Virus record (IMG/VR): IMGVR_UViG_3300031111_000529
Coordinates: 1-52,630 of that record
Length of the DNA stretch: 52,630 nucleotides
Strand: one strand, 5' to 3'
From: a virus
Lineage: Duplodnaviria > Caudoviricetes
Shown: positions 1,493-28,107 of the stretch, in pieces
How positions within the stretch are numbered: the first letter of the stretch is position 1
How the letters are laid out: every line of letters starts with the position of its first letter
Position numbers and translations under genes: made by a program
The notes under the pieces: generated by a model
The model's input: only the letters and a program-made list of their open reading frames with translations
Told to the model about the DNA's origin: nothing
Databases searched by the model: none

Positions 1493-1780
1493 TCAAGGGC
1501 TTTCTGGCACAGGTCTTGGAGAGTTCTGCGGGCCTGTTCTGGGCCGCACGTTGGCCACTGTCGGCACCGGACAGCCTTCGGCGATCCAGCGTTCGAGGAC
1601 CTCACGGGGCCAGCGGATCAGCCCGCCAATTCGAGCGGGTCGAGGAATGCGCCCTTTGTCCACCAGGCGGTAGACGGTCCTTGGCGAGCAGGCCAGCAGT
1701 GTGGCCACGCCGTCGACGGTGAGCATGATGGACTGGGCGGGAAGATTCTGATCGTTGGGACGAGTGTGCTGCTCTTGCAT
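1493..1780 (-). CDS. Excisionase / AlpA-like HTH protein
   Basis: MLTVDGVATLLACSPRTVYRLVDKGRIPRPARIGGLIRW is a typical HTH_17/AlpA signature; directly upstream of int; start taken at ATG 1780. Confidence 0.88.
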   Translation of the reverse strand: MQEQHTRPNDQNLPAQSIMLTVDGVATLLACSPRTVYRLVDKGRIPRPARIGGLIRWPREVLERWIAEGCPVPTVANVRPRTGPQNSPRPVPESP

Positions 1781-1901
1781 GGTGACAATCCTTCCGTGGC
1801 GATGACGAAGCTCGCAGAGGGCAGCCGATCGTCGCTCTTCGCCAACGGCCTTCGACCAGCGACCAGTGCGCTGTCCGGCAAGCATTCGGACGGACCAGTC
1901 T

Positions 1902-1940
1902 CTATTAGTTACTTACCCCGTGGGGGCCAAAAACGTCGGA
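1902..1940 (-). promoter_or_regulatory. Bipartite motif copy 1 (putative phage-sigma promoter of xis-int)
   Basis: Minus strand reads TCCGACG-tttttggccccca-CGGGGTAAGTAACTAATAG; same boxes and 13-nt spacer as at 13230 and 28069. Confidence 0.8.
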
Positions 1941-2295: not shown

Positions 2296-5200
2296 ATGCC
2301 GAGCAGGACAAGCAAGAGCGGCAGTGAACTGTTCATTGTGGACAACAGTGATGCAGACTGGAAGGTCCAGCGTTACCTGCGCGATTGGTGCCAGATCTCG
2401 AAGCAGTTGGATGTCGCTACGGGCTATTTTGAGATCGGTTCTCTATTGTCGCTGGGGGATGCTTGGGAGAGGGTGGATCATGTTCGCATCCTGATGGGCG
2501 ACGAGGTATCTCTTCGCACGAAGCGTGCCTTCGAAGAAGGGCTGGCGCACGCCACCGGAACACTGGATGAGAGCATTGAGGCCGCCAAGGAAACCAATGA
2601 CTTTCTGGTCGGCGTGCCAGCCATCGTTGAAGGGATCCGTAGTGGCAAGATAGCCTGCCGCGTGTACCGTAAGGACAAGTTCCACGCTAAGGCCTACATC
2701 ACGCACGGCCGGCTGGACGTGGTCGGGGCCTCCGCCTTGGTTGGGTCATCAAACTTCACGCACCCCGGGCTGACGGAAAACCTTGAACTCAACGTTCAGA
2801 TCACCGGCAGTCCGGTGAGTGTCCTTCAGGAGTGGTACGAGGAGCACTGGAACAATGCGGAAGACGTGACGCCGGAGATCCTCAGGACTATCGAACGCCA
2901 CACGCGGGAGTATCCCCCCTTCGAGGTCTACGCGCGAAGTCTGCAGGAGTACTTCCGCAGCCACGAGCTGACGGCCGACGAATGGGAACGGCGTGACTCA
3001 AAGATGTACCCGGTCCTGGCCACGTACCAGCGACATGGGTACCACGGCTTGCTGAAGAGAGCCAGGAAGTACGGCGGCGCCTTCCTTTGCGACGGCGTGG
3101 GTTTGGGCAAGACCTACATCGGACTAATGGCCATCGAGCGCCTTGTCCTCCACGAGAAGAAACGCGTCGCGCTCTTCGTCCCGAAGGCCGCACGGGAAGC
3201 CGTCTGGGAAAGCAAGATCAAGAAACACCTGCCGGAGATTCTCGGCGGGTTCCTGAGCTTCCGCATCTACAACCATACGGACCTGCTCCGTACAAACAGG
3301 CAGATTCGCCTCGAACTGGAGCAGATGAAGGAACAGGCGGACGTGGTGATGATCGATGAGGCCCATCACTTCCGCAACACCGGCATTCGCGGTGAGGATG
3401 AAGGTGATCGCAGAAGCCGTTACTGGGAAATGTTCGACATCTGCGATGGCAAGCAGCTCTTCCTGCTTACCGCCACGCCCGTCAACAACCGCCTGACCGA
3501 CTTCCAGCACATGACCGAATTGTTCTCGCGCCGGAAGGCGGAGTACTTCGGCATTGCTCCCCTTGGCATCCACAGCCTGCCCGGCCATGTCCGCACGTTG
3601 GAGAAACAGATTGAGGCCGCTGCCAAAGGACGCGAAGAGGAACTGAGCGAAGGCACGGCAGCCCTTGAGGAAGACAACGCTGAAACAAACCTGGCGGAAG
3701 CCGAGCAGATCCTGCGCGATGACTCACTCTTCGAGGAACTCGTCGTCCAGCGCAGCCGGGCTTACGTCAAGCAGTCCCTCGCCGAAGAGGACGGCCAAGT
3801 GCTTTTCCCGCAGTCCTCACCCCCGAAGGTCGTCCCCTACTCCGTCAAGCAGACCTACGGCAAACTGCTGAAGATGGTGGAGGATGCCTTCCACCAAAAG
3901 AAGCCGCTGTTCTCGCTGGCAATGTACTACCCATGGGACTACTACACCGGCGAACGTGACTTAACCGAGCAAGACGCCGCCATGACCGTTGGCCGCCAGA
4001 AGCAAGTAGCCCGACTGATTCGCACATCCTTCCTCAAGCGATTTGAGAGTTCGGTCTTCGCTTTCAAGGCGTCGTGCGAAACATTGATGAAGAAGCTGAT
4101 CGCCTTCTACCAAGTTCATGCCGAGGATCGCCACGACAAGGATCGCCTGGACAAGTGGCTCGGCCGCAACAAGGACATTACAGGCTTCGACCCGCACAAG
4201 CAGCACACCCTCTTCCCCGACCAGAAGGATCTGGAACTTGAGGAAGAGGACGTTGTGGAGCCGGAGTATTTCGAGAAGGCGTACAAGGATCGGCTCAGCC
4301 CGGATGAGTTCAACATTCCCGGTCTCCTGGCTGATGCCCTAAATGACCTGAACACTATCGCCGATTTCCTCAAGGAACTGGCCCTATTCGAGCCAAAGCA
4401 GGACAAGAAACTCCAGGCGCTCATCCAGCTGCTTCGCGGGCATACGCCGGGGTTGAAAGACGTTGCTCTCCAGCGCCACAAGCTGCTGGTCTTCACCGAG
4501 TTCAAGGACACGGCCCGTTATCTCGCTGAGCAACTCATCGAGGCCGGGTTCGCCGACGTGGTCGAGATCGACTCCCGCACACACTCCAACGGCCGGCTGG
4601 CCGTGATCCGAGCATTTGCTCCTTACTACAACGACTCATCCAGCGCGGACCTGGCCGCCAAAGGCCTGGACGAGACGCGCATCCTGATCTCGACGGATGT
4701 CCTCTCAGAAGGCCTGAACCTCCAGGACGCCACGCGTCTGGTCAACTACGACCTGCACTGGAACCCCGTGCGGCTCATGCAGCGCATTGGCCGAATCGAC
4801 CGGCGGCTAGACCCCGCTGTCGAGGCCCAGATGATCGCTGACCGCCCGGAGATCGAGAAGTTCCGCGGCATGATCCAGTACTACAACTTCCTCCCGCCGG
4901 ACGAATTGAACGAGCTTCTCAGTCTCTACAAGACCGTCACCCACAAGACGCTTCGCATCTCCAAGACCTTCGGCATCGAGAACGGCAAGCTGCTCCGCCC
5001 GGACGATGATTACGATATCCTCCGCGACTTCGTACGCCAGTGCGAGGGAACCGAATCGCAGAGCGAGGGCCTCAGCCTGGAGTTCCAGAAGCTGCTCAAG
5101 GACAACCCCGACATCGAGGCCAGAATCAGCCAATTCCCCAACCGCGTCTTCGCCGGTAAGGAATCGCTCAGTCCCGACACCACAGGCGTCTTCTTCTGCT

Positions 5201-5490
5201 ACGCCCGCCCAGCCAAGGATATAGACAGCGACGACTGGACCATCGAAGCCGGAGACGTGAGGTGGTATCTCTACGACCTTGCCACGGAGAAGATCATCGA
5301 AGACCCATACGAGATCGTCCAGCACATCCGCTCCGGCCCGGACACTCCGCGCGTTTGCCGCATGGGACAAGACGATCTCATCGAGATCCGTAAGAAGATG
5401 GACAAGTACATCAAGAACAGCTACCTCAAAAAGGTCCAGGCTCCAATCGGCGTGAAGCCGGTCCTCCGCACCTGGATGGAGCTAGCCTAG
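2296..5490 (+). CDS. PLD-family nuclease fused to SNF2-type SF2 helicase (restriction subunit-like)
   Basis: FHAKAY...GSSNFT...NLELN (PLD HxK motif); DGVGLGKT (Walker A), IDEAHHFRN, TATP, SEGLNLQ, QRIGRIDR (helicase motifs). Confidence 0.9.
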   Translation: MPSRTSKSGSELFIVDNSDADWKVQRYLRDWCQISKQLDVATGYFEIGSLLSLGDAWERVDHVRILMGDEVSLRTKRAFEEGLAHATGTLDESIEAAKETNDFLVGVPAIVEGIRSGKIACRVYRKDKFHAKAYITHGRLDVVGASALVGSSNFTHPGLTENLELNVQITGSPVSVLQEWYEEHWNNAEDVTPEILRTIERHTREYPPFEVYARSLQEYFRSHELTADEWERRDSKMYPVLATYQRHGYHGLLKRARKYGGAFLCDGVGLGKTYIGLMAIERLVLHEKKRVALFVPKAAREAVWESKIKKHLPEILGGFLSFRIYNHTDLLRTNRQIRLELEQMKEQADVVMIDEAHHFRNTGIRGEDEGDRRSRYWEMFDICDGKQLFLLTATPVNNRLTDFQHMTELFSRRKAEYFGIAPLGIHSLPGHVRTLEKQIEAAAKGREEELSEGTAALEEDNAETNLAEAEQILRDDSLFEELVVQRSRAYVKQSLAEEDGQVLFPQSSPPKVVPYSVKQTYGKLLKMVEDAFHQKKPLFSLAMYYPWDYYTGERDLTEQDAAMTVGRQKQVARLIRTSFLKRFESSVFAFKASCETLMKKLIAFYQVHAEDRHDKDRLDKWLGRNKDITGFDPHKQHTLFPDQKDLELEEEDVVEPEYFEKAYKDRLSPDEFNIPGLLADALNDLNTIADFLKELALFEPKQDKKLQALIQLLRGHTPGLKDVALQRHKLLVFTEFKDTARYLAEQLIEAGFADVVEIDSRTHSNGRLAVIRAFAPYYNDSSSADLAAKGLDETRILISTDVLSEGLNLQDATRLVNYDLHWNPVRLMQRIGRIDRRLDPAVEAQMIADRPEIEKFRGMIQYYNFLPPDELNELLSLYKTVTHKTLRISKTFGIENGKLLRPDDDYDILRDFVRQCEGTESQSEGLSLEFQKLLKDNPDIEARISQFPNRVFAGKESLSPDTTGVFFCYARPAKDIDSDDWTIEAGDVRWYLYDLATEKIIEDPYEIVQHIRSGPDTPRVCRMGQDDLIEIRKKMDKYIKNSYLKKVQAPIGVKPVLRTWMELA

Positions 5491-5508
5491 GGACAAGGGG
5501 TGTGATCA

Positions 5509-8500
5509 ATGTCTGAAGAGATTCGAGAGCAGCTGCAGGCCATCAAGACGTTCCCTTCGCTGGTCAAGTACCTCCGAGATGAACTCGACTGGCCCATCGA
5601 AGCCGATGACTTCGATGACCTGACCTTTGACTACGAGCCCGAAGAACTGGGCATCGATGCCAAGACGGCCGCGAAGATCGAGTACGTCAAACAGCTCCGC
5701 CCCCTTGAGGACGGCCAGCCCTGGGGCATCTTCTTCGTCAAGTTCGAGCCCAAGCGGCTCCCCGTCGTCGCCATGCGCCGCATCCTCCGCGGCCTAGCTG
5801 TCAAGAAGCGTGCCTCCGCCAACCGGGCCGACAGGGCTGCCTGGGCCAGGACCGACCTGCTGTTTATCTCAGCCTACGGCGAGAACGAGCAACGTCACAT
5901 CAACTTCGCCCACTTCCACGAGAGTCCACAGAACGGCGACCTGCCCGTCCTGCGCGTTCTTGGCTGGGATGGCTCGGACACCGCCCTGCACATCGACCAC
6001 GTCCACGAGACGCTCACGAGCAGGCTGCGCTGGCCAGATGACGTTCTGGATGCCAATGCTTGGCGGGAGACCTGGGCCGGCGCCTTTACCCTTAAACACC
6101 GCGAGGTCATCACCACCAGCAAGCAGATGGCCATTCGTCTGGCCGACCTTGCCCGGCAGATCCGCAAGAAGATCAACTCCATCCTGGCCATCGAGAAACA
6201 AAGCGGTCCCATGCATAAACTCATGGCTGCCTTCAAGGAAGCCCTCATTCACGACCTGTCAGAAGATGACTTCGCCGATACTTTTGCTCAGACCATTAGC
6301 TATGGGCTTCTGATCGCAGGCATGTCTCGTACCGTCAACGGTGAAGGCACGGCTGTGATCGCGACCGATATTGTCGAGATGGTTCCCAGAACGAACCCCT
6401 TTCTCCGCGAAATGCTTGCGACATTCCTAACCGTCGGGGGGCGTAGAGGCAGGCTGGACTTCGATGAACTGGGCATCAGTGACGTCGTCGATGTTCTTCG
6501 CAGCCCGGATACGCACATGGAGGCCGTCAAACGCGACGTTGGCGACGCAAATGTACGAGAAGATCCTGCCCTCTATTTCTACGAGCTGTTCCTGAAAGAA
6601 TACGACGCTAAGAAGCGCATGCAGCGCGGCGTCTTCTACACCCCCCGGCCGGTCGTATCCTACATCGTCCGCTCCGTCCACGAGCTGCTCCAGACCGAGT
6701 TCGGCTTGGAAGACGGCCTTGCCGACACGACTACCTGGGGGGAGATGGTCGAGAGATGTCCCGACCTCAAGCTGCCGACCATCAAGGTCAAGAAGCCCGA
6801 CTTGCCTGACCTGGTGAATGAGCCCATTGATCCCTCCACCCCGTTTATCCAGATACTCGACCCGGCCACCGGCACCGGCACCTTCCTTGTCGAGGTCATC
6901 GACGTCGTCCACAAGACGATGAAGCAGAAGTGGCTCGATGGTGGCCACTTGCCTCTGCAGATTCCCGAACTGTGGAACGACTACGTGCCCGAGCACCTTC
7001 TGCCACGTCTGTACGGCTACGAACTCATGATGGCCCCATATGCCATCGCCCACATGAAGATCGGCCTGAAGCTCTTCGAGACCGGCTACCGCTTCGGAAC
7101 CGACGAGCGGGCCCGCATCTATCTCACCAACGCACTCGAGCCCGCGCAGGACTTCTCAGACACGTTCGAGCAGATGGCCCCCGCCCTAGCCCACGAAGCC
7201 CAGGCCGTCAACGACGTCAAGCGGCATCATCGCTTCACCGTAGTGATCGGGAATCCACCGTATTCCGCGCTATCCGCCAATCTGACCGAACAGGCGCGTC
7301 GACTCGTGACACGGTTTAAGTACATTGATGGCATCAAACTCCACGAACGCGGCGCGTTGCAGTTGGAGAAGAATCTTCAGGATGACTATGTCAAGTTCTT
7401 GGCCATTACCGAAGATCACTTGAGCGAAAGCGGGATTGGCGCTTGCGGCATCATCTGCAATCACGGTTTCATCGACAATCCCACTCTACGAGGTCTACGC
7501 TGGTCGCTGTTGGACCGTTTCAGCAACCAGTGGGTCCTGGATCTGCACGGCAATGTCAATCGCCGCGAAGTCGCGCCGGACGGCTCGCCCGATCAGAATA
7601 TCTTCGACATCAAGGACGCGGGGGTAGCAATCTTCCTCGCCACACGCGGCCAGCGCACATGTTCTGCGGACGCTGGACTGCGCCAAGCGGACCTCTGGGG
7701 GGGAGACCGTGTGACGCAGAAATACCCATTTCTGTCGACGGAGTCAGCCGCGACAACGCCGTGGGAATCGGTCTCGACCGGCCCCGAGCTGTACCTGTTC
7801 TGCAACATCGGTGGCCCCGACGCGGAAGAATACGCGGCTTGGCCTAAGGCTACGGAGGTCTTTCCGCTGCACAGTATCGGCATGATTACGGCGCGGGACG
7901 CGTACGTCATTGACTTCGAGCCGGGGCTGGTCTTAGAGCGGGCGAAGGCCTTCCGCGGCTCAACTTTGGATGACGAGGCGACGTGCCAGGCGCTGGGCAT
8001 TCCGTTAAAGAAAGGCTGGAACATTGCTCGGGCGCGCCAGCGGATTCAGCAAGTGACGAACCTGGCATCCTGCGTTCACCCGCTGCTGTACCGTCCGTTC
8101 GACATCCGGCCTGTGTTCTATCACGAATCGCTGATCTGGGGCATGGCCTGGCCAGTGATGCAGCACATGCTCGAAGGGCAGAACTTGGCCCTGATCACAT
8201 CGCGGATGACGAAGGGGGAGGACTTCCAGCATGTGTTGGTTAGCCGGGGTCTTTCCGAGGTGATTCTGCTTTCGTCGAAGACCTCCAACAACGCCTTCGT
8301 TTTCCCGTTGTACTTACGCAATCAGGAGGACATGCTTCATGCTGGCGGCACGACGAACATCAGCACGGAGTATACCCGAAGCATCTCGCAGGTCATCGGT
8401 GGCGCTGCACCTCCTCAAGCGATCTTTCAGTACATCTATGCCGTGCTGCACAGTCTAACGTACCGTAAGCGGTACGTGCATCTGCTGAAGCGCGACTTTC

Positions 8501-8991
8501 CGCGCATCCCGGTTCCAGCGACTGCGCATGTCTTCGACGGCCTGGCCGAATTGGGCGGGGAACTGGTTCCTCTGCACCTTCTGGAGTCCCCGCTGCTGGA
8601 CAAGCCGATTACCGCCTACACCGGCCCGGCAAATCCGGAGGTGGAGAAGGTCAGCTACAGCGACGAAACCGTCTGGCTGGACAGGGCCAAGACCCGTGGC
8701 TTTGAGGGCGTGCCGGAAGACGTCTGGAACTTCCACATCGGCGGGTACCAAGTCTGCCACAAGTGGCTCAAGGATCGCCAGGCCAAGGGCGGCAGGAACC
8801 CACGCCCCGGCCGCGTACTCAAGAAAGACGACGTCGAGCACTACCGCAAGATCGTCACGGCCCTCCACCACACCATCCGCCTCATGGGCGAGATCGACGA
8901 AGTCATCGAGCAGCACGGCGGCTGGCCCGACGCCTTCATCACTGACCCAAAGGTCTTGGAAGGCCTGAAATCAAGAGATGGGAAGCCATAG
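5509..8991 (+). CDS. N6-adenine DNA methyltransferase with C-terminal target-recognition domain (Type ISP/IIG-like)
   Basis: GVFYTP, ILDPATGTGTF (SAM binding), VIGNPPY (catalytic); C-terminal YRPFD, YIYAVLHS.YR.RY...DFPRIP and IGGYQVCHKWLKDR as in Type ISP specificity domains. Confidence 0.92.
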   Translation: MSEEIREQLQAIKTFPSLVKYLRDELDWPIEADDFDDLTFDYEPEELGIDAKTAAKIEYVKQLRPLEDGQPWGIFFVKFEPKRLPVVAMRRILRGLAVKKRASANRADRAAWARTDLLFISAYGENEQRHINFAHFHESPQNGDLPVLRVLGWDGSDTALHIDHVHETLTSRLRWPDDVLDANAWRETWAGAFTLKHREVITTSKQMAIRLADLARQIRKKINSILAIEKQSGPMHKLMAAFKEALIHDLSEDDFADTFAQTISYGLLIAGMSRTVNGEGTAVIATDIVEMVPRTNPFLREMLATFLTVGGRRGRLDFDELGISDVVDVLRSPDTHMEAVKRDVGDANVREDPALYFYELFLKEYDAKKRMQRGVFYTPRPVVSYIVRSVHELLQTEFGLEDGLADTTTWGEMVERCPDLKLPTIKVKKPDLPDLVNEPIDPSTPFIQILDPATGTGTFLVEVIDVVHKTMKQKWLDGGHLPLQIPELWNDYVPEHLLPRLYGYELMMAPYAIAHMKIGLKLFETGYRFGTDERARIYLTNALEPAQDFSDTFEQMAPALAHEAQAVNDVKRHHRFTVVIGNPPYSALSANLTEQARRLVTRFKYIDGIKLHERGALQLEKNLQDDYVKFLAITEDHLSESGIGACGIICNHGFIDNPTLRGLRWSLLDRFSNQWVLDLHGNVNRREVAPDGSPDQNIFDIKDAGVAIFLATRGQRTCSADAGLRQADLWGGDRVTQKYPFLSTESAATTPWESVSTGPELYLFCNIGGPDAEEYAAWPKATEVFPLHSIGMITARDAYVIDFEPGLVLERAKAFRGSTLDDEATCQALGIPLKKGWNIARARQRIQQVTNLASCVHPLLYRPFDIRPVFYHESLIWGMAWPVMQHMLEGQNLALITSRMTKGEDFQHVLVSRGLSEVILLSSKTSNNAFVFPLYLRNQEDMLHAGGTTNISTEYTRSISQVIGGAAPPQAIFQYIYAVLHSLTYRKRYVHLLKRDFPRIPVPATAHVFDGLAELGGELVPLHLLESPLLDKPITAYTGPANPEVEKVSYSDETVWLDRAKTRGFEGVPEDVWNFHIGGYQVCHKWLKDRQAKGGRNPRPGRVLKKDDVEHYRKIVTALHHTIRLMGEIDEVIEQHGGWPDAFITDPKVLEGLKSRDGKP

Positions 8992-9027: not shown

Positions 9028-9387
9028 ATGGGAACACTTACCATAGACAATCAGGACGGCCTTCACTTGCGGACCAATGCTCCTGCTGAGCAGGCCCAAC
9101 GTTATGCGGCTGCGTTCCGCCAGGTATGGCAGACGATTCACCCAAATGACCGGCAGAGAGCCAAGGGCCACTGGCTCGGCAATAGCCCCACCGGACATCG
9201 AGCTGAGCGACCTGTGGCAACACAACGAGCGGGCTGGGCAACGGTATATTCTGGACCTGCTATTGAGCGTAACCAATCTGAGCGTTCAGACAATGGATAC
9301 CGTGGACAGCCTGCCGACGCTGGACCTCTCCGCGGGGGCGGAGAGATGATCCGAAACAGAAGCATGGAGTTGCCAGCGAAGGAGTAA
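9028..9387 (+). pseudogene. Hypothetical ORF, possibly frameshifted remnant
   Basis: Protein-like N-terminus (MGTLTIDNQDGLHLRTNAP...FRQVWQTIHP) seems to continue in the overlapping frame (PPDIELSDLWQH) after a C-run near 9186; no recognisable family. Confidence 0.3.
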
Positions 9388-9392
9388 TCCTC

Positions 9393-10169
9393 ATGGGCCA
9401 CAACCGACTTCATGTAATCGCGCAGACGCGGCTTTGGCGCGAGGTGGTCGGCACGCTGGAAGACCACGACAGTGGGATGGCCGATGTTGCGTCGGCGACG
9501 GCGACGGCCGCGCAGACCGGCCTTCAACGGGCCAAGGGGGACGAAGGGCTTTCGTACGCATTCTGGCTTCTCTGCCAGATTCCGCTGGCCGCCAAGAAGG
9601 CCGACTTCGGCAAGGGCCTTCGCGGGCTGGGGCTGGACGTCCCCGACGCGCCTTCGACGTTCGACGTAGCCGCCGGTTTCACTGAGGCCGTCGAGTCCCA
9701 CCTTCGCCGGACCCGAGGCCGGACAGACATAGGTGAAATCGCCCAACTGGCCGCTGCCGAGTGCCTGACCGCCACGGCGACGCAGGCGCTGAAGGGCCTG
9801 TTCAGTTCAGAGGCCGAGAACGTCCAGAACACCTTCGGGGGGCAGGCGACGCAGAAGAACTTCGGCTTCTTCGCCCAGGACTTCTTCGCACGGTTTGCGA
9901 GCCGCTTCCTGGCATACCACCTCAGCCGGGAGCTTTCGAACCATGTCGGCGAAGGTCGTCGGTTTGCGAACATATCCGAGCATGAGCAGTTCAAGGAAGC
10001 GATGGAGCTTCATTGCCGCCAGACCGCCCGCATTGTGCGGGAGTATGCCGGGACCTGGCATTCGAAGACAAGCTATGAATCGGGAATCACGCCCCGGAAG
10101 GCCAAGCGATTCGTCGCCCATGCGATGACCAAGCTGAGCGATGAGCTTTCGCGAAGGGAGGGGCGATGA
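9393..10169 (+). CDS. Alpha-helical partner of the QueC-like enzyme (QatB-analogous; N-terminus Met-Gly-His)
   Basis: AAGGAG RBS; 258 aa, Ala-rich and helical; stop overlaps the QueC start (ATGA). QatB analogy is inferred from position, size and Gly2. Confidence 0.75.
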   Translation: MGHNRLHVIAQTRLWREVVGTLEDHDSGMADVASATATAAQTGLQRAKGDEGLSYAFWLLCQIPLAAKKADFGKGLRGLGLDVPDAPSTFDVAAGFTEAVESHLRRTRGRTDIGEIAQLAAAECLTATATQALKGLFSSEAENVQNTFGGQATQKNFGFFAQDFFARFASRFLAYHLSRELSNHVGEGRRFANISEHEQFKEAMELHCRQTARIVREYAGTWHSKTSYESGITPRKAKRFVAHAMTKLSDELSRREGR

Positions 10170-11866
10170 AGCACGAACGCCTAATCCTTTGCGGCGGCGC
10201 ATCGGCCCCCCGAGGCGTGCGGGCTGAACGGCTTCACCTGGACCTTTGGGGCCGCGACCCGAACGTATTCCTGAAGATTCGCAATATCACCGACGCCGTG
10301 GCCAAGAACCCCCCGCCAGTCCTGCTGGACTTGCTGGACGTGGCCGCCTACCTGTACGCCGGCGATCAATGCGTTCCGCGCGGGGGGACGGCCAGCTTCG
10401 ACTACGGCGACCGATGGGACCGCCGATTGCGCTACGTGATTCCGCTTCGAAGGCCCAAGGTATGGCAACGCGCCAGAGTCAAAGAAGCCCTGGCCGACGT
10501 TCTCGGCTGGATGACCGATGACCAGTTTGAGTTCCGTTTTCCGCAACTGAAGAATCCCCCGAAGCTGCCGAGTTACCTTGAGTTCGACAAGGACACGGCG
10601 AACCCCACGGGCATTGAGGAAGTCTGCATGTTCTCGGGCGGGTTGGATTCGCTGGCGGGCGCGGTCAAAGAAGCCGTGGTGGACGGCCGGAAAGTTGCGC
10701 TGGTTGGCCACTGCCCCGCCCCGCAACTGCACAAGCGGCAGGACCAGCTTCTTGAGGCCCTGGCCGCAAAGTGCAAGCCGGCCAAGCGGCCGTTCTTTGT
10801 CCAAGTATGGGCAAACAAGGCTTCCAGCTTGACCAAAGACACGTCGCAGCGCATCAGGTCCTTCCTGTTCGCTTCGCTGGGCGCGGTGATTGCCGGCATG
10901 ATGAAGCTGAATCGCGTTCGGTTCTACGAGAACGGCCCGGTTTCGCTGAACCTTCCCCTTTGCGAACAGCTTGTTGGGGCGCGGGTCACGCGGACGACGC
11001 ACCCGAAGACGCTAGCCGGGATGAGTAAGCTGCTCAGCCTGTTGCTAGGAACCGACTTCGCGGTGGACAACCCGTTCCTGTGGAAGACGCGAACCGACAC
11101 TGTGCTTGACCTGAAAGCCGCGAAGGCCGAAGACCTGCTCCCCTACACCGTCAGTTGCAGCCATACGCGGGGAATGACAACGGGCTACCCGCATTGCGGT
11201 TGCTGTTCGCAGTGCATAGACAGGCGCTTCGCCGTCTTGGCCGCCGATTGTGGACAACACGACCCCGCCGATTCCTACCAACTGGACGTGCTCACCGACG
11301 GGCGAGACAAGACCGAAGACCGCACCATGCTGGAACGCTACTTGGGCTTCGCGGCCAAGGTCGAAGCCGTTAAGGACGAGAACACCTTCTTCACTGAGTT
11401 CCCCGAAGCCTATCGCACAATCAACGCCATGGACGGGGACCGGCGGGAATCGGCCAAACAGGTCATCGCACTGTGCAAACGACACGGGGAGCAGGTCAAC
11501 GGCGTTGTCGACCGCGCCTTGGCCGATGCGGCTGCAAGTGGAGCATTGCGGCGCGGGGAACTGCCAGGCAATTGTGCGCTCCTGCTGGTGGGAAGCAGGC
11601 ACTCGACCCCCGCGCCTACGACCGAAGCCACTGGGCAGGATAGTGCATCGCCTGCCGAACAGGATACCGACCGCCCACGCTGCGCGCCAATGACACGAAC
11701 CGAGATAGCCCGCCGGCTGCTAAACCGAACAGACGCCCGCGTTCGTCAAGCTGAAGGCATGATGAAGCGCCTTGGCTTGCGGCAGGAAGACGGCAAGTTC
11801 TACACGATCCTGGTTGACCAACTGGATCCTGCGACGAGGACACGCCTTCTGAAGCCAGCTTCTTGA
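10166..11866 (+). CDS. QueC/QatC-like PP-loop ATP pyrophosphatase with C-terminal linker and HTH-like extension
   Basis: FSGGLDS PP-loop; RSFLF, ENG and TRTTHP motifs; Zn cluster SCSH...HCGCCSQCIDRR; QatC-like N-terminal extension (DLLDVAAYLYAGDQ); tail MTRTEIARRLLN... Confidence 0.88.
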   Translation: MKHERLILCGGASAPRGVRAERLHLDLWGRDPNVFLKIRNITDAVAKNPPPVLLDLLDVAAYLYAGDQCVPRGGTASFDYGDRWDRRLRYVIPLRRPKVWQRARVKEALADVLGWMTDDQFEFRFPQLKNPPKLPSYLEFDKDTANPTGIEEVCMFSGGLDSLAGAVKEAVVDGRKVALVGHCPAPQLHKRQDQLLEALAAKCKPAKRPFFVQVWANKASSLTKDTSQRIRSFLFASLGAVIAGMMKLNRVRFYENGPVSLNLPLCEQLVGARVTRTTHPKTLAGMSKLLSLLLGTDFAVDNPFLWKTRTDTVLDLKAAKAEDLLPYTVSCSHTRGMTTGYPHCGCCSQCIDRRFAVLAADCGQHDPADSYQLDVLTDGRDKTEDRTMLERYLGFAAKVEAVKDENTFFTEFPEAYRTINAMDGDRRESAKQVIALCKRHGEQVNGVVDRALADAAASGALRRGELPGNCALLLVGSRHSTPAPTTEATGQDSASPAEQDTDRPRCAPMTRTEIARRLLNRTDARVRQAEGMMKRLGLRQEDGKFYTILVDQLDPATRTRLLKPAS

Positions 11867-11875
11867 CGCAGTTCC

Positions 11876-11946
11876 TTACGGCCATTTCCGACCATTTCCG
11901 ACCATCCCCGCCAGTTACGACCATCCCCGCCACCACCCCATTCCGG
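11876..11946 (+). repeat. Phased ~10-bp direct repeats RCCATYYCCG (putative activator binding sites)
   Basis: GCCATTTCCG/ACCATTTCCG/ACCATCCCCG at 11881/11891/11901, ACCATCCCCG at 11920, CCATTCCG at 11938; followed by -10-like CATACT at 11962. Confidence 0.75.
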
Positions 11947-12038
11947 ACCTTGTCTGCGCACCATACTGTGGACCGTAGGACGCGGCAGGCAACGGACGCC
12001 TACGCGATTTCAACGGCGACGGACATGGAGCAGTGCTT

Positions 12039-12443
12039 ATGCAGCAAGTCAGGAGAAACGCCACCGACGGGCGTAACGTCGGCGGGGAATCGGCCCCCGC
12101 GCAACTGGCCGAAATGCCCAACGTGCAAGGGAAGGCCGACCTCATCCCTGCAGAGGCGCGGCTGGTAGAGATGATGCAGCGGATCAACTACGGCCGCATC
12201 CTGGGGCTATCGGTGCGCCACGGCGAGCCAGTGATGGACCCGCCGCCGCGCATCTTCCATGAGTACAAGTTTCCCGGTGATAACGGGGCGCGCCCCGAAG
12301 CCACCAAGGTCGACTTTGCCCTCAAGGCCCAGGTCCGCGACCTCTTCGCCCAACTGGAGGCGATGGGTAATGGAGTCGTTCGGTCCATCGAGATTCAGCG
12401 CGGTCTTCCGTTTCGGATGACCGTCGAGGAGGAGGCCGCCTAA
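12039..12443 (+). CDS. Small conserved hypothetical protein with two helix-beta-beta half repeats (DUF2292/YezD-like by resemblance)
   Basis: GGAG RBS before ATG 12039; halves LVEMMQRINYGRILGLSVRHGEP and LFAQLEAMGNGVVRSIEIQRGLP resemble each other. Confidence 0.65.
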   Translation: MQQVRRNATDGRNVGGESAPAQLAEMPNVQGKADLIPAEARLVEMMQRINYGRILGLSVRHGEPVMDPPPRIFHEYKFPGDNGARPEATKVDFALKAQVRDLFAQLEAMGNGVVRSIEIQRGLPFRMTVEEEAA

Positions 12444-12494
12444 GCACCGGGGTCCGGCTCCCCACATGACATGTGATCCAAACGAATTGAGTAC

Positions 12495-12629
12495 CTGACA
12501 ACTAACCGGCCACGAAGTGGAGGCGTTGTGGGTGCCGCAGAAGCGGCAGTCCTGCAACGCCTCCCGTTCTATAGGTCGCAGCTTCGGTTGGCACCCACGC
12601 GACGCCTTCCCGGCCAAAGGAAGGCACAA
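12495..12629 (+). promoter_or_regulatory. Structured RNA leader/attenuator of the sigma gene
   Basis: Long hairpin 12519-12564; RBS-sequestering hairpin GCCTTCC/GGAAGGC 12604-12625; alternative pairing of 12519-12536 with 12590-12610. Confidence 0.65.
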
Positions 12630-13226
12630 ATGGACGCCAACAAGAAGCAGCACGGAATCAATGACTATGCAGAGAATCTCATCCACCACAAGGCACGTCA
12701 GCTCGTCGGCACTGCCGGCTTCACCAGGGACGACGTCGAGGATCTGGAGCAGGAGATGAGGCTTGACCTGCTGCAACGCCTGCCGAACTTCGACCCGAGC
12801 AAGGCGACCTACAACACGTTCGTATCACGTCTCATCGAACGGAAAATCAGCAATCTCATCCGCCATCGAACCCAGGAGCTGCGCGACCACCGGTGTGAGG
12901 ACGGGTCGATACATGATCCGATCCCATCCAGCCATGGCGGCGATACTGAGGTCGAGCGCATCGAGACCGTCACTCAGGACGAGCAGGATTTCCGGTTGGG
13001 CAAACACACCCGCAGCGCTGAGGAGCGTCGCGACCTGAAGCTGGACATCTCGCTGGCCTTGGAAAAGCTTCCGGCAGACCTACGGGAACTGGCGGAAATC
13101 CTGCAGGCCATGTCGATCACCGAAGCGGCCTGCGAATTGGGCATCCCGCGCAGCACGCTCTATGAGCGGATCGCCAAGCTGCGCCGGGCATTAGAGGCCA
13201 TGGGTCTAAACGGCCAGTTTCGATGA
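12630..13226 (+). CDS. ECF-like sigma-70 family RNA polymerase sigma factor
   Basis: Region 2 DDVEDLEQE...FDPSKATYNTFVSRLIERKISNLIR; region 4 LEKLP...MSITEAACELGIPRSTLYERIAKLR; GGAAGG RBS before ATG 12630. Confidence 0.9.
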   Translation: MDANKKQHGINDYAENLIHHKARQLVGTAGFTRDDVEDLEQEMRLDLLQRLPNFDPSKATYNTFVSRLIERKISNLIRHRTQELRDHRCEDGSIHDPIPSSHGGDTEVERIETVTQDEQDFRLGKHTRSAEERRDLKLDISLALEKLPADLRELAEILQAMSITEAACELGIPRSTLYERIAKLRRALEAMGLNGQFR

Positions 13227-13229
13227 ATC

Positions 13230-13268
13230 TCCGACGTATTTCCCCTGCGCGGGGTAAGTAACTAATAG
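13230..13268 (+). promoter_or_regulatory. Bipartite motif copy 2 (putative phage-sigma promoter of the replication operon)
   Basis: TCCGACG-tatttcccctgcg-CGGGGTAAGTAACTAATAG, starting just after the sigma stop codon. Confidence 0.8.
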
Positions 13269-13435
13269 GCGACCAGGATCGAACTCAAGGAGACAAGAGT
13301 GATCGATGTGTTGTGAGCATACCACGCCCGGGCGGCTTGCGGCGGGTCCACCACACGCGACGGCCGCTCGCCCGGGCGTTTCCCATGCGACGGAACAGTC
13401 AGATAAACGTGAACACCAAGCATAAGGAAGACGCG

Positions 13436-14224
13436 ATGACATTACTGAAACAGATCCGAAGTGGCCCGCGCCACTCACCACCCCGGTTGCTGCTCTACGG
13501 CACCGAGGGCATCGGCAAGTCCACCACAGCATCGCAGGCTCCCAAGGCAATATTCGTCCCTACCGAGGACGGCCTCGACCAGATCGACTGCGATAGCTTC
13601 CCCCTCGCCAGGCGGTTCGACGAGGTCATGTCGGCCGTCTCGGCGCTGTACTCGGAACAGCACGATTACCAAAGCGTGGTGATCGACAGCCTGGATTGGC
13701 TGGAGCGGCTGATTTGGGACGAAGTCTGCCGTGAGTACGGCGTAAAGAGCATCGAGAAGGCCGACGGCGGATACGCCAAGGGTTACACCCATGCCCTGAC
13801 CCAGTGGAGAGAGGTGCTGGATGGCCTGGATGCGCTCCGCAACGAGCGCGGTATGGCCGTCATCCTGCTGGCCCACGCCAAGGTCGAGAAGTTCGAGGAT
13901 CCCGAGTCGGCCGCTTACGACCGCTATTCTCCCCGCCTGCACAAGCATGCGGCCGCCCTGGTGACGGAGTGGTGCGACGGTGTGCTGTTCGCCACGCGGA
14001 AGTTCCGCACCGAAAGCGAGGACGCAGGCTTCAATCGCACACGCTCCATAGCCGTCCCGCTCGGGGCCGACGGTGGTGAGCGCATCCTCCGCACCATCGG
14101 TGGACCGTCGTGCATCGCCAAGAACCGCTACTCCCTGCCGTCCGAGCTGCCCCTGTCGTGGCAGGCCCTCATGGCGGCAATGACCGAAGCCAACACCGAG
14201 ACCCAGGAGAACACCAATGGCTGA
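13436..14224 (+). CDS. AAA_24 / Sak4-like recombination ATPase
   Basis: LLYGTEGIGKST (Walker A), VVIDSLDWLE (Walker B), AKNRY; AAGGAAG RBS. Confidence 0.88.
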   Translation: MTLLKQIRSGPRHSPPRLLLYGTEGIGKSTTASQAPKAIFVPTEDGLDQIDCDSFPLARRFDEVMSAVSALYSEQHDYQSVVIDSLDWLERLIWDEVCREYGVKSIEKADGGYAKGYTHALTQWREVLDGLDALRNERGMAVILLAHAKVEKFEDPESAAYDRYSPRLHKHAAALVTEWCDGVLFATRKFRTESEDAGFNRTRSIAVPLGADGGERILRTIGGPSCIAKNRYSLPSELPLSWQALMAAMTEANTETQENTNG

Positions 14225-14669
14225 CCTGAACGGATTCAACGCCAACGAAGTCGAACCCAACACCAGCTTCGACCCGCTGCCGGCGGGCAAGTACCTGGCT
14301 GCCATCACCGCCTCGGAGATGAAGGCCACCAAGGCCGGAGATGGCAGCTACCTCGAAATCGAATTCACCGTCCTGGAAGGGCAATACAAGGAGCGCAAGC
14401 TCTGGGATCGTCTCTGCCTGAACCATTCCAACCCGCAGACGGTCAAGATCGCGCGCGGCAACCTGTCGGCGCTCTGCCGGGCGGTCGGTGTGATGCAGCC
14501 GACCGACAGCGTCGAGCTGCACAACCTGCCGCTGGTGATAACCGTCAAGGTCAAGAGGCGCGAGGACACCGGCGAGCTGACCAACGAGGTCAGGGGCTAC
14601 GCGGCCAAGGACACCGCAGCACAGCCCCAAGCGCCCGTGACAGACAGCACACCCCCGTGGAAGCGCTGA
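14217..14669 (+). CDS. DUF669-family ssDNA-binding protein
   Basis: FDPLPAGKY...G.YL.IEF.VLEG...RKLWDRL; C-terminal PPWKR; follows the Sak4-like gene. Confidence 0.85.
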   Translation: MADLNGFNANEVEPNTSFDPLPAGKYLAAITASEMKATKAGDGSYLEIEFTVLEGQYKERKLWDRLCLNHSNPQTVKIARGNLSALCRAVGVMQPTDSVELHNLPLVITVKVKRREDTGELTNEVRGYAAKDTAAQPQAPVTDSTPPWKR

Positions 14670-14679
14670 GGGCACAGCC

Positions 14680-15066
14680 GTGGTGCTGACACTGCCATAC
14701 CCGCCAAGCGTGAATCACTACTGGCGTCGAGTGGGGCCGCGCACGCTGATCAGCCGGGAGGGCCGGACGTTCCGCAGGGATGTCTGTGCCCTCCTGGGCG
14801 GGGGCGGCCCGCGCAGGCCGCCTTCGGGCGGACGGATCGCGCTGGCAATGGGTGCCTTCCCGCCGGATCGCAGGCGACGTGACCTGGACAATATCGCCAA
14901 GGCAGTGCTCGACGCGCTGGAACATGCGGGCGTCTACGCCGACGACAGCCAGATCGATCTACTGCTCACGCGCAGGCGCGAGCCTGTCAAGGGAGGCAGG
15001 CTCGACATTCATATCGATGAGTTCCCGCTGCGCCGCTGCCCGCTTTGCGGAGCGGAGATGAACTGA
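14680..15066 (+). CDS. rusA: RusA-family Holliday junction resolvase
   Basis: LPYPPSVNHYWR; PPDRRRRDLDNIAKAVLDALEHAGVYADDSQI. Confidence 0.92.
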   Translation: MVLTLPYPPSVNHYWRRVGPRTLISREGRTFRRDVCALLGGGGPRRPPSGGRIALAMGAFPPDRRRRDLDNIAKAVLDALEHAGVYADDSQIDLLLTRRREPVKGGRLDIHIDEFPLRRCPLCGAEMN

Positions 15067-15201
15067 ATGCAGAAGCTTTTTCCCACGATCCTGATCGTTC
15101 TGGATATCTGCGCCGCGCTGGCCTACGTGCCCACGGGCGACTGGCGAAGGGTGGTCTACTGGCTGGCAGCCGCGACGCTCACGACGGTGGTGACCTGGTG
15201 A
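15067..15201 (+). CDS. 44-aa two-TM membrane peptide (absent from ORF track)
   Basis: MQKLFPTILIVLDICAALAYVPTGDWRRVVYWLAAATLTTVVTW; abuts the rusA stop and overlaps the helicase GTG start (GTGA). Confidence 0.75.
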   Translation: MQKLFPTILIVLDICAALAYVPTGDWRRVVYWLAAATLTTVVTW

Positions 15202-16892
15202 TCCAGCTGCGCCCATACCAGGTCGAGGCCGTCAGTTCAGTCTATGAGCACCTGCAGCATAGAGATGACCATCCGTGTGTCGTGATCCCGACGGCTGGGG
15301 GTAAGACTCCGGTGATGGCCAGCATATGCCGAGACGCAGTGCAGCGCTGGGACGGGCGCGTGTTGATCCTGGCCCACGTGAAGGAACTGCTGGAGCAGGC
15401 CGTCGAGAAGCTCCACATCATGGCTCCTGATCTGTGGAATCGTATCGGGGTCTACTCGGCCGGCCTTCGCAGTCGCGACACCGACCACCCGATCATCGTC
15501 GCGGGCATCCAGAGCGTCTACCGCAGAGCTGCCCAGCTGGATCGCTTCGATCTCATCTGTATCGACGAGGCCCACATGCTTCCGCCGGACGGCGAGGGGA
15601 TGTATCGCACGTTCATGGCCGAGGCGCAAGTGGTCAACCCGAACGTCCGCCTCATCGGCCTGACTGCCACTCCGTACCGCATGACGACCGGCATGATCTG
15701 CTCACCGGACAATCTCCTTAACCACGTCTGCTACGAAGTGGGCGTCCGCGAGTTGATCGTGCAGGGATACCTGTGCCCGCTGAAGACCAAGGCAGGCAGG
15801 CGGAAGGTGGACACGTCTGGGCTGCACATACGGGGCGGTGAGTTCATCGCCGGCGAGGTAGAGGCGCTGATGGACGACGACTCGCTGGTTCAGTCGGCCT
15901 GTCAGGAGATCGTCGATCACGCGCGTGACAGGCATTCGGTGCTTATCTTCGCGTCCGGCGTCCAGCATGCCCTGCACGTCCAGCGCGTACTGGCCGAGAT
16001 AGGCCAGGAGTGCGGCTTCGTGTGCGGTGAGACGCTTCCCTACAGACGTGCGCAGACGCTGGAGCAGTTCAAGGCAGGCAAGCTGAAGTACTTGGTCAAC
16101 GTTAACGTGCTGACTACCGGGTTCGACGCGCCCAATATCGACTGCGTGGCCCTGCTGAGGCCGACGAACTCGCCGGGCCTGTACTACCAGATGGTAGGTC
16201 GAGGCTTCAGGCTCGACCCGTCGAAGGCAGACTGCCTGATCCTGGACTTCGGCGGCAACATCATGCGACACGGACCGGTCGATGCCCTCCAGATCAAGGA
16301 TCCCGCCAGCAGCGACGGCCAAGCTCCTGCTAAGGAGTGCCCGCAGTGTCAGGCCGTCATCCACGCCGCCTACGCCAATTGTCCGTACTGCGGCTACGAA
16401 TTCCCGCCGCGCCAGCACCGCGAGCACGACCGGCAGGCCACGACTGCCGGCATCCTATCCGGCGAGGTGACCGAGACGGACTGCGAGGTCAGCGAAGTCT
16501 ACTACAGCGTGCACGTCAAGCGCGATGCTCCGGAGGACCACCCGCACAGCATGCGCGTCGATTATCGTTGCGGCTTCAACGAGTACCACAGCGAGTGGGT
16601 CTGCTTCGAACACACCGGCTACGCCAGGGCGAAGGCCGAGGCGTGGTGGCGCGCCCGATCCAACGAGCCGGTCCCCAGTACCGTCGAGGAGGCGGTGGAT
16701 ATCTGTGAGGAAGGCGGGATAGCGCCGACGCTGGCCATCACGGTGCGTTCAGTGTCGGGCGAGAAGTTCGACCGGATTACAAACTACCAGCTCGGGCCCA
16801 TCCCGCCGCGCTTGGACGGCAGCGACGAGCGTGACGAGGGCGGTCTACCCATACACGACTGGCCGCCCGATGACTGCGAGGTGCCGTTCTAG
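15198..16892 (+). CDS. SF2 DEAD/DEAH helicase (RadD/YejH-like) with Zn finger
   Basis: LRPYQ, PTAGGKT, IDEAH, TATP, LTTGFDAP, QMVGRG; CPQC...CPYC. Confidence 0.93.
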   Translation: MIQLRPYQVEAVSSVYEHLQHRDDHPCVVIPTAGGKTPVMASICRDAVQRWDGRVLILAHVKELLEQAVEKLHIMAPDLWNRIGVYSAGLRSRDTDHPIIVAGIQSVYRRAAQLDRFDLICIDEAHMLPPDGEGMYRTFMAEAQVVNPNVRLIGLTATPYRMTTGMICSPDNLLNHVCYEVGVRELIVQGYLCPLKTKAGRRKVDTSGLHIRGGEFIAGEVEALMDDDSLVQSACQEIVDHARDRHSVLIFASGVQHALHVQRVLAEIGQECGFVCGETLPYRRAQTLEQFKAGKLKYLVNVNVLTTGFDAPNIDCVALLRPTNSPGLYYQMVGRGFRLDPSKADCLILDFGGNIMRHGPVDALQIKDPASSDGQAPAKECPQCQAVIHAAYANCPYCGYEFPPRQHREHDRQATTAGILSGEVTETDCEVSEVYYSVHVKRDAPEDHPHSMRVDYRCGFNEYHSEWVCFEHTGYARAKAEAWWRARSNEPVPSTVEEAVDICEEGGIAPTLAITVRSVSGEKFDRITNYQLGPIPPRLDGSDERDEGGLPIHDWPPDDCEVPF

Positions 16893-23221: not shown

Positions 23222-23797
23222 CTACTTGGCCAGCTCGAACTTGCCCCGCTCGACCTTGCGGAACCGTGCGGCGTCGCCCTTGGTGGCGATCTCACGGATG
23301 ATGGCAGCATAGATGGTTGCTGCCGGTGTCTTGCCCTTGGTCTGCCAGAGGCCCTTGGCCAGCATCTGTTCGACCATGTCCTTGGCTCCAAGAGGCCCCT
23401 TGGCATCGGCCAGCACCTGCGCGGCTGCGTCAAGGCCGCTGGAGCGTTTCTTCTTGTCCTTCTCAACTGCCACCATCGCGGCGCTGACGGCGTCGGCCTT
23501 GTTGGCCTCGGTGATGCGGCCGCGTTTCTTCTTCGACGTCGGTACGGTGACGCCCTTGGCCAGATCGCCTTTCTGGACGGCCTCGACCGTCTTGGCGATG
23601 TCGGGCTTGATCTTGCCAGGCGCCCTCGTCTCGTGACGGAGGCGCTGGGCGGACCTGATGCGAATCTTCTTGTTCGTTCGCATGTTGGTGGCATCCCAGC
23701 CGCCGCGCGGGTTGGCCGCGTCGATGCGGACGGTAGCCATGTTGCCGCTGACCTTCGCTGCGTAGTGCTTGCCAATCTTGATCTCGCTCTTCTTCAT
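23222..23797 (-). CDS. Basic protein with C-terminal HARE-HTH (winged helix)
   Basis: SGLDAAAQVL...MVEQMLAKGLWQTKGKTPAATIYAAIIREI...RFRKVERGKF; AAAGGAAAG RBS. Confidence 0.85.
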   Translation of the reverse strand: MKKSEIKIGKHYAAKVSGNMATVRIDAANPRGGWDATNMRTNKKIRIRSAQRLRHETRAPGKIKPDIAKTVEAVQKGDLAKGVTVPTSKKKRGRITEANKADAVSAAMVAVEKDKKKRSSGLDAAAQVLADAKGPLGAKDMVEQMLAKGLWQTKGKTPAATIYAAIIREIATKGDAARFRKVERGKFELAK

Positions 23798-23836
23798 GAT
23801 GCTTTCCTTTCTGCTGGGCCCGGTTGGCCCGGTGTC

Positions 23837-24115: not shown

Positions 24116-24130
24116 GGTTGCTCTCCTTGC

Positions 24131-24532: not shown

Positions 24533-24544
24533 GATGGTCTCCTT

Positions 24545-24832: not shown

Positions 24833-24862
24833 GGTCGTGCTCCTTGTCTCTTGGGTTGGTGG

Positions 24863-28068: not shown

Positions 28069-28107
28069 TCCGACGGTTTCCGCTTCGACGGGGTAAGTAA
28101 CTAATAG
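28069..28107 (+). promoter_or_regulatory. Bipartite motif copy 3 (putative phage-sigma promoter of the head-tail operon)
   Basis: TCCGACG-gtttccgcttcga-CGGGGTAAGTAACTAATAG, about 35 bp upstream of the 28142 start. Confidence 0.8.

Follow-up and report, generated by a model that had tools for sequence, protein, structure and literature searches.

The stretch analysed here (the window, 52,630 nucleotides (nt)) is the whole of the IMG/VR provirus record IMGVR_UViG_3300031111_000529, whose completeness is put at 100% by CheckV, and our subject is its segment 9393–13268, in which a QatB-like protein and a QatC-like enzyme with a C-terminal tail stand before a small conserved gene, a structured RNA leader and a sigma factor of the extracytoplasmic function (ECF) type (Table 1). 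From the left end, the provirus carries a tyrosine integrase, an HTH_17 protein, a cargo pair, QatB and QatC, the small gene, the leader, the sigma factor, a replication operon, and then the terminase and virion genes. The segment was compared with a set of 54 fetched loci (L numbers below), whose phages, mostly from Planctomycetota, are temperate and form one family. We read the region as a modular induction circuit, in which a QatBC sensor with a DNA-binding tail would act on the small-protein/sigma operon and, through it, on the lytic genes; we give this reading a probability of about 0.6. The wiring, that is, the parts, their conservation, their linkage and the co-variation of tail and repeats, is well supported. 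From it we infer that the tail binds the repeats, that it activates rather than represses, what kind of signal is sensed, and that the sigma factor recognizes the motif found before the lytic operons.

Table 1. Features of the window (positions in the 52,630-nt stretch; parts of the proposed circuit first, then flanking genes)
Feature	Position	Strand	Evidence or description
QatB-like partner	9393..10169	+	Starts MGH; low-confidence N-terminus, then all-helical body; stop overlaps QatC start
QatC-like QueC-family enzyme, tail fused at C-terminus	10166..11866	+	566 amino acids (aa)
QatC core, residues 1-457		+	
QatC linker, residues 477-500	11594-11665	+	
QatC tail, residues 505-566	11678-11863	+	
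Four direct repeats GRCCATYYCC, proposed operator of the QatC tail	11880, 11890, 11900, 11919 (11880..11928)	+	
-10-like CATACT, putative promoter of the small-protein/sigma operon	11962..11967	+	No recognizable -35
Small conserved protein, 134 aa	12039..12443	+	Always 5′ of leader and sigma; tblastn synteny in all element-bearing loci
Structured leader, 186 nt	12444..12629	+	Long hairpin 12519-12564; ribosome-binding site (RBS) hairpin 12604-12610 with 12619-12625
Leader alternative helix	12528-12536 with 12590-12598	+	
ECF-type sigma factor, 198 aa	12630..13226	+	TIGR02937 sigma70-ECF 1.3e-15
Putative sigma-type promoter 1, TCCGACG-N14-GGGGTAAGTAACTAATAG, facing xis/int	1902..1940	-	Exact 11-mer and bipartite pattern match
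Putative sigma-type promoter 2, TCCGACG-N14-GGGGTAAGTAACTAATAG, before replication operon, right after sigma stop	13230..13268	+	
Putative sigma-type promoter 3, TCCGACG-N14-GGGGTAAGTAACTAATAG, before virion genes	28069..28107	+	
Tyrosine integrase, left provirus end	68..1426	-	Pfam Phage_integrase 1.8e-17
HTH_17 gene (excisionase/AlpA-like), nearest gene 3′ of promoter 1	1493..1885	-	Pfam HTH_17 3.7e-13
Cargo pair, same orientation as QatBC	2296..8991	+	Pfam PLDc_2, SNF2, Helicase_C, Type_ISP_C 1.4e-67
PLD-SNF2 helicase-nuclease	2296-5490	+	PADLOC HKD+Snf2 3.9e-50
Type IIG/ISP-like methyltransferase-specificity protein	5509-8991	+	PADLOC REase_MTase_IIG 3.7e-171
Replication operon, opening genes AAA_24, DUF669, RusA, DEAD-box helicase	13433..16892	+	Pfam; synteny in relatives

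The gene that opens the segment codes for a protein whose family counts 169 members or more; in the 29 that were aligned, Met1 and Gly2 are nearly invariant. Its link to QatB comes from a fold search, the sequence and profile searches having given none: zero matches were returned by Pfam, PADLOC, NCBIfam, phmmer against the PDB and a PDB profile search built on 29 homologues. When the predicted structure (predicted local distance difference test (pLDDT) 81, with residues 1–11 below 50) was compared by Foldseek with 350,542 PDB chains, the QatB chains 9y01_A and 9y02_A took ranks 1 and 2 at a probability of 1.00, with E-values of only 0.011 and 0.022 and template modelling (TM) scores, as TMt, of 0.53 and 0.55; the remaining matches listed for this model all had a TM below 0.3. 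The QatB of the known defence system is reported to depend on its N-terminal glycine and a flexible tail (PMC13279940). Its published N-terminus reads MGTS, whereas the window partner begins MGH and does not match solved QatB at the level of sequence.

The identity of the second protein as QatC is supported by PADLOC (5.4e-52), the PDB entry 9vlk (4.8e-24) and Foldseek (9y01_B, 1.7e-17, TMt 0.75). It scores 203.4 bits against an NCBIfam QatC equivalog cut-off of 280 bits and, judged by its sequence, belongs to a divergent clade. The SGGxDS motif (S157, G158, G159, D161 and S162) is nearly invariant among 120 homologues; in the Zn-binding cysteine cluster, C344 is invariant and C331, C347 and C350 are nearly so, and a QatC cysteine motif has been described (PMC13329287). 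The window thus resembles the core of QatABCD (PMC13279940, PMC13376578, PMC13639016; PDB 9y01, 9vlk, 9zee) in having a QueC-family enzyme with SGGxDS and a cysteine cluster, next to a helical partner whose flexible N-terminus opens with Met-Gly. Six-frame searches of the provirus gave no match to QatA (PF07693) or QatD (PF01026), and pairs free of both are on record, QatA/QatD being present in only about 34% of QatC neighbourhoods (PMC13329287). The window differs from that core in the length of its enzyme, the solved QatC chains having 465–466 aa and the reported median being about 400 aa (PMC13329287), in its linker and DNA-binding-type tail, in its score below the equivalog cut-off, and in the position of the pair before a phage sigma operon with proposed cognate repeats. 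A further likeness is to the deazaguanylation of CD-NTase by Cap9 in type IV cyclic oligonucleotide-based antiphage signalling systems (CBASS), where a QueC-family enzyme acts on the N-terminal glycine of its partner (PMC13279940, PMC13329287); unlike these systems, the window has neither a CD-NTase nor Cap10, and the output proposed for it is transcriptional.

The AlphaFold2 (AF2) model of QatC is confident through the core, disordered across the linker and confident again in the tail, where about 60 residues form two helices, a beta hairpin and a closing helix. This order matches the helix-turn-helix (HTH)-plus-wing pattern, and the tail is predicted to bind DNA. Extensions at this end of QatC are frequent. 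Core matches with E-values up to 1e-10 number 4040 proteins, and 118 of the 120 best relatives run at least 40 residues past window residue 480. By sequence, these tails group into 21 clusters, the biggest with 75 members of about 644 aa whose fold is unknown, and representative tails match Sigma70_r4_2 (P0188, 3e-8), Trans_reg_C, HTH_17 and MarR_2. The commonest long form (75 of the 118 tails; proteins P0138–P0241) is extended at its C-terminus by about 170 aa and is spread over many phyla. The tail type of the window also terminates an unrelated protein of 324 aa (P0125), whose locus has no relative among the metagenome contigs searched.

Fourteen bases 3′ of the QatC stop begin four direct repeats, for which Tandem Repeats Finder (TRF) gives a period of 10. 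The consensus GRCCATYYCC is matched six times in the window, against 1.5 expected, and four of these six matches lie within the array. L051 has a QatC of 79% identity with the same tail type, and there the GACCAK core of the repeats is kept at a 10-bp phase and the flanks are changed; this contig ends within the homologous small-gene start, and its 5′ untranslated region is conserved, with a similar -10-like element. A scan of 11700–12700 found no sigma-70-type promoter, and no sigma-54-like promoter was seen by eye in the window between QatC and the small gene.

The unit that follows the repeats is the constant part of the arrangement. The family alignment of the small protein holds 24 sequences, which occur only in phage and Planctomycetota-type records, and its structural neighbours are phage and planctomycete hypothetical proteins, with a tandem DUF2292 cluster at TM 0.46/0.51; Pfam and NCBIfam scans recognized no family in it, anti-sigma families included. 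The original prediction had called it a small two-repeat protein, of which the conserved small protein stands and the two-repeat part is weakly supported (hhalign of the halves, E 7.5e-4, probability 25%). Further downstream, the sigma factor scores 57.4 bits with TIGR02937 (cut-off 42.9); among Pfam families, Sigma70_r2 lies above its cut-off at 30.1 bits and Sigma70_r4_2 below it at 18.7 bits, and the protein has the layout of an ECF (group 4) sigma factor, with regions 2 and 4 only in about 200 aa. The exact 31-nt core of the leader is found in 23 viral stretches, and a 24-nt core in 16 stretches of species-representative genomes, 11 of which are titled as Planctomycetota lineages and three as other phyla. 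Wherever flanks are available, they encode the small protein on the 5′ side of the element and, on the 3′ side, the sigma factor and the replication genes; the unit is thus constant even though sigma identity falls to 26–78%.

The leader itself was aligned over 28 distinct homologous sequences, which share a long invariant core. Its long and RBS hairpins are paired in 97.4% of the cells across these sequences, and three pairs of the RBS hairpin are changed on both sides (19 cells), which was reached in 0 of 500 shuffles. The alternative helix is 99% paired in the 28 close sequences, with one-sided variation only and no double changes. In divergent QatBC phages, a covariance model detects weaker leader homologues at the corresponding place, after the small gene and before the sigma gene (27.6 bits in L045 and L048, 23 in L053 and 18 in L044), and these keep the long hairpin with different letters; in L053, a 9-bp alternative helix is retained through a double change, and in L048, L045 and L044 a 6-bp alternative helix was read by eye and is not the first-ranked helix of the script. 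The model-fitted alignment was contaminated by antisense matches of the palindromic hairpin and was kept out of the counts. From these predicted pairings, the two folds are mutually exclusive, one holding the Shine–Dalgarno sequence in a stem and the other apparently able to free it. Rfam gave no match at gathering score in the window and just two matches in 11800–12700, both at chance level (E 4–5). This element (about 150 nt, flanking proteins 26–78% identical, absent from Rfam) is a candidate new cis-regulatory RNA. It resembles known RBS-sequestering leaders, whether riboswitches, RNA thermometers or protein-controlled leaders, in its conserved Shine–Dalgarno hairpin and in an alternative pairing that would release it, and differs from them in having no Rfam family match. 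In L002 (1–720), a second sigma-like gene directly 5′ of the small gene is preceded by a partial leader copy (23.5 bits), which makes a tandem leader–sigma arrangement.

The sequence proposed to be read by this sigma factor is a bipartite motif, which may also be written TCCGACG-N14-GGGGTAAGTAAC. With identical spacing it has three matches in the window, against 0.02 expected, and 0 of 100 shuffles reach three. In relatives the motif also stands 3′ of the sigma gene, and its -10 part is altered where the sigma factor is most divergent. Because the motif lies at three operons, and after the sigma gene in relatives, with a -10 part that varies with the sigma factor, the latter is likely an activator of the excision, replication and virion genes, which would require that it recognizes this motif. 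Sigma cascades are a familiar means by which phages time their gene expression, and all genes here are co-oriented with the early operon, so the cassette could be an early-to-middle lytic timer without any sensing: the DNA-binding protein would be made by host RNA polymerase and would in turn switch on the sigma operon, the enzyme parts serving, for example, counter-defence. Such a timer would leave unexplained both the conserved N-terminal glycine of the QatB family and the diverse, big input domains that occupy the same position in relatives (QatBC, a HamB-like helicase and activators with long N-terminal domains, about 1000 aa in all), and the motif before xis/int fits induction from the prophage state; we therefore regard a pure timer as very unlikely.

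Up to this point, the parts list of the original prediction is borne out: a helical protein starting MGH, now with a QatB fold (the two top Foldseek matches) and Met1/Gly2 conserved family-wide; a QueC-like enzyme, identified as QatC by PADLOC, the PDB and Foldseek, with an HTH-like tail in the AF2 model; 10-bp phased repeats just after its stop; a leader able to hide the sigma RBS, through a conserved hairpin; an ECF-like sigma above the TIGR02937 cut-off; and one bipartite motif before three lytic operons (xis/int, replication and virion).

The combination of QatB and QatC with a downstream sigma unit is met repeatedly. When viral contigs were searched with a QatC of the window clade, seven loci came up, each with both QatB and QatC, and a metagenome scan added four further QatBC loci, for a total of 13 with the window and L019. 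A sigma homologue lies downstream of QatBC in 9 of the 10 loci at which this could be judged (the seven viral loci, the window, L019 and L053), and the small protein has a tblastn match in seven of the nine that bear the sigma factor. At least four kinds of QatC tail occur in this position: the window type (window and L051), type B (L019, L045, L049, L053 and L054), an OmpR type (L044, with Trans_reg_C at 1e-9, L046, L047, L048 and L050) and others, such as the further, unnamed kind of L052, whose contig ends soon after QatC.

QatBC is one of several occupants of this slot. Of the 21 distinct loci whose sequence extends 2.3 kb or more upstream of the unit, two (the window and L019) have QatBC, and the other loci carry other cassettes. 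These include a pair of 391-aa and 313-aa proteins, a 398-aa protein with a partner, a 327-aa protein, a 1038-aa sigma-54 activator with an HmaC/DUF499 protein in front, and an 853-aa HamB-like (Hachiman-type) helicase (L033, 148–2709; PADLOC 1.2e-32). One cluster of proteins of 734–980 aa comprises those of L003 and L041 (980 aa), which have a sigma-54 interaction domain, and that of L037 (734 aa), which has a type-A tail instead of the sigma-54 domain. With few exceptions, the cassette closes with a protein that has a DNA-binding-type tail at its C-terminus, and repeats lie in the intergenic DNA behind it. Each kind of tail has its own kind of repeat. The type-A tail (L013, HTH_3 3e-5) pairs with the palindrome AATTGCAGTTGC...GCAACTGCAATT, the Fis-type HTH (L023, HTH_8 8.3e-12) with three or four direct repeats, the winged-helix-like tail of the L033 helicase with CTGACAAGACC x3 at 11-bp spacing, a region-4-like tail with ATTGACC-N-GGTCAAT, and the type-B tail with palindromes of 5–6 bp that vary by locus.

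The co-variation of repeat and tail, which the original prediction had expected, can be counted: across 31 loci, six or more 8-mers from the 120 nt that follow the stop are common to both members in 56 of 69 same-tail pairs, against 1 of 396 different-tail pairs, figures that are to be read with tail types assigned by eye and with a shared ancestry of loci that inflates the difference. L037 is a natural domain swap, in which an N-terminal domain of the L003 family is joined to a type-A tail and followed by the type-A palindrome. The closest relative of the window, L003 (sigma 78% and AAA_24 90% identical), has another cassette and other repeats, which indicates that regulator, repeats and promoter are exchanged as one unit. 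Taken together with the recurrence of QatBC, these observations agree with the predicted linkage of the QueC/HTH slot to the sigma operon across homologous prophages.

They also bear on the view that QatBC is ordinary anti-phage cargo in a hot spot, its tail serving defence or autoregulation and the repeats another regulator. QatB and QatC without other parts are reported to suffice against some phages (PMC13279940), the provirus lacks QatA and QatD as many QatC neighbourhoods do (PMC13329287), and the slot is variable and adjoins cargo of the restriction–modification (RM) type (PLD-SNF2/methylase). This view fits poorly with repeats that track the tail type and not the N-terminal domain (L037), with a regulator, repeats and promoter that are swapped together (L003 versus the window), and with the recurrence of QatBC ahead of the sigma unit (9 of the 10 loci that could be judged), where it bears no fewer than four kinds of DNA-binding tail, and we give it little credence.

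The sign of the control is where the main rival to activation lies. On this alternative, the QatC winged HTH (wHTH) tail would be a maintenance repressor, or a roadblock on the repeats, that a QatBC-sensed signal lifts, with the same wiring and the opposite sign. The complete provirus shows no other recognized repressor: six-frame searches gave no match to Peptidase_S24 (PF00717) or HTH_3 (PF01381), and Pfam searches with 29 window open reading frames (ORFs) found no CI/Cro-type protein, the only HTH-type matches being HTH_17 (1493–1885), HARE-HTH (23222–23797) and the sigma factor, so the earlier statement that no CI/Cro-like or S24 repressor is recognizable stands. In five QatBC phages (L044–L048; ORFs read by eye), QatB directly follows a serine recombinase and a small HTH-like protein, and no XRE/ImmA- or LexA-like ORF was seen between these and QatB (by eye, a Pfam scan not having been made). 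No terminator-like site was found on the + strand between QatC and the small gene, so something would have to stop read-through. Pointing the other way, sigma-54 activators (Sigma54_activat, 8e-63 in L023 and 3.2e-30 in L003) and sigma-54-like promoters occupy the slot in L003, L041 and L023, where three to four direct repeats are followed, just before the small gene, by what we take to be a sigma-54-like promoter; by the nature of this activator family, the slot in these loci would be under positive control. L003 shows this region of repeats and promoter at 9350–9485 (oriented coordinates), as do L041 and L023, beside prophage sigma-54 activators of about 1000 aa. Direct repeats upstream of a gene start together with OmpR-type proteins are an arrangement typical of activators, and the OmpR-type tails here have direct repeats 5′ of the gene start. 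The stretch 11700–12700 also holds no sigma-70-type promoter with a good -35, and it is on this point and on the sigma-54 activators in the same slot that activation is favoured. Repression or a roadblock is accordingly rated as fairly unlikely, though it is the strongest of the alternatives. The window differs from classical enhancer-binding proteins with sigma-54 promoters, which share its slot and upstream repeats in these three loci, in having neither an AAA+ domain nor a sigma-54-like promoter.

The description of the prophage as repressor-less is compatible with the data, and candidates for a repressor would be the small ORFs of unknown function, the HTH_17 protein and the QatC-wHTH itself. 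Relatives with other cassettes have, in the stretch from the serine recombinase to the variable cassette, either an XRE protein accompanied by an ImmA/IrrE-like HExxH protein (L009, oriented 3960–5041) or a LexA-like protein (L031, 3977–4633), as read by eye from translations; neither kind has a tblastn match in the window. These XRE+ImmA/IrrE and LexA-like S24 repressors thus lie in relatives between the recombinase and the early operon, upstream of the tail-bearing cassette and not in its place, and none is recognized in the window.

Several observations weigh against an induction circuit controlled by the QatC tail. Given the XRE+ImmA or LexA-like genes of relatives, repressor-less is not a description that fits the entire family, and the missing + strand terminator-like site between QatC and the small gene makes read-through from the cargo operon possible and the repeats a possible roadblock. 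The fold call for the tail comes from a single AF2 model and an alignment of 13 rows, the tail has no Pfam match, and canonical QatC of E. coli is reported not to bind DNA in an electrophoretic mobility shift assay (PMC13376578). Among the QatBC loci, L046 and L047 have the sigma factor and no tblastn match to the small protein, and in L050 a QatBC with an OmpR-type tail is followed by other genes. The expectation that the slot always holds a tail followed by repeats is true of nearly all loci but fails in three: L001 and L002 have no clear repeats, and in L029 the nearest upstream + strand ORF (at least 150 aa, DUF488-like by eye) lies 442 nt from the small-gene core. This 442-nt intergenic stretch of L029 (807–1250, oriented) is crowded with short CCGTCA/TGACGG-type repeats.

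In the induction circuit that we favour, QatC, with QatB as a substrate-like partner, would control the DNA binding or the activity of its own tail. The tail would act at the four GRCCATYYCC repeats and switch on the small-protein/sigma operon, the two mutually exclusive folds of the leader would gate sigma translation, and the sigma factor would then turn on excision and lytic development through the three sigma-type promoters. By analogy with the roles of QatBC and HamB in other systems, the signal may be phage attack. A broader proposal, which we offer tentatively as possible rather than probable, is that the place ahead of the sigma switch in temperate Planctomycetota phages works as a plug-in slot. 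Immune-type sensors (QatBC, a Hachiman-type helicase, and activators with nuclease- or helicase-like N-termini), each fused to a DNA-binding output and matched with its own operator, would have been recruited to it repeatedly and, instead of triggering defence as elsewhere, would trigger excision and lysis under attack.

The nearest known logic appears to be that of the transcription factor–small protein modules of Silpe et al. (bioRxiv 10.1101/2022.09.16.508337), who describe phage transcription factor–small ORF modules, in linear plasmid-like phages, for induction independent of DNA damage. Both in these modules and in the window, the transcription factor is exchangeable and has a small gene next to it, at a constant position in the phage; in the published modules, a phage-encoded factor is reported to activate the neighbouring small gene, and the modules share a common logic without sequence similarity. 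In the window, by contrast, it is the sensor that varies, defence-type enzymes included, whereas the small protein is a conserved one with a structured leader and a sigma factor behind it; the family consists mostly of Planctomycetota prophages, and no repressor target is known. If the circuit is as proposed, damage-independent prophage induction, until now shown for transcription factor–small protein modules, would reach a large uncultured phage family, and prophage switches and defence-type sensors would exchange parts. An immune-style sensor, with the QatC tail placed before the sigma switch, may then decide when this prophage of a planctomycete awakens.

For QatBC, on the broader proposal of a plug-in slot, the fusions with DNA-binding domains, taken there as the majority of the 120 nearest QatC relatives, would mean that the pair is at root a signalling module, with transcription as a possible natural output. 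The QatBC reaction and its consequence are called unknown, and its activity hard to reconstitute (PMC13279940); a QatC-tail fusion with a candidate operator and a downstream operon would offer a direct read-out of QatBC activation. The literature searched holds no QatC–DNA-binding fusion and no description of this switch; outside that scope, long forms may be included in table S2 of PMC13329287 and Supplementary Figs 6–7 of PMC13279940.

A few further genes of the provirus deserve mention. A 59-aa ORF without a Pfam match (2112–2291) stands in front of the RM-like cargo pair (2296–8991). The replication operon also includes a primase (Pfam), and a PDDEXK_13/REase-ARP nuclease gene (16889–17827, - strand, 4.9e-65) lies antisense within it. 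Between a methylase on one side and the terminase on the other, five small genes occupy the - strand (23222–25111), among which a regulator is possible; the last of them (23222–23797) has a HARE-HTH domain (4.8e-12), and the other four have no family. At the right end of the provirus, an ORF of 2275 aa extends over 44117–50944 on the - strand.

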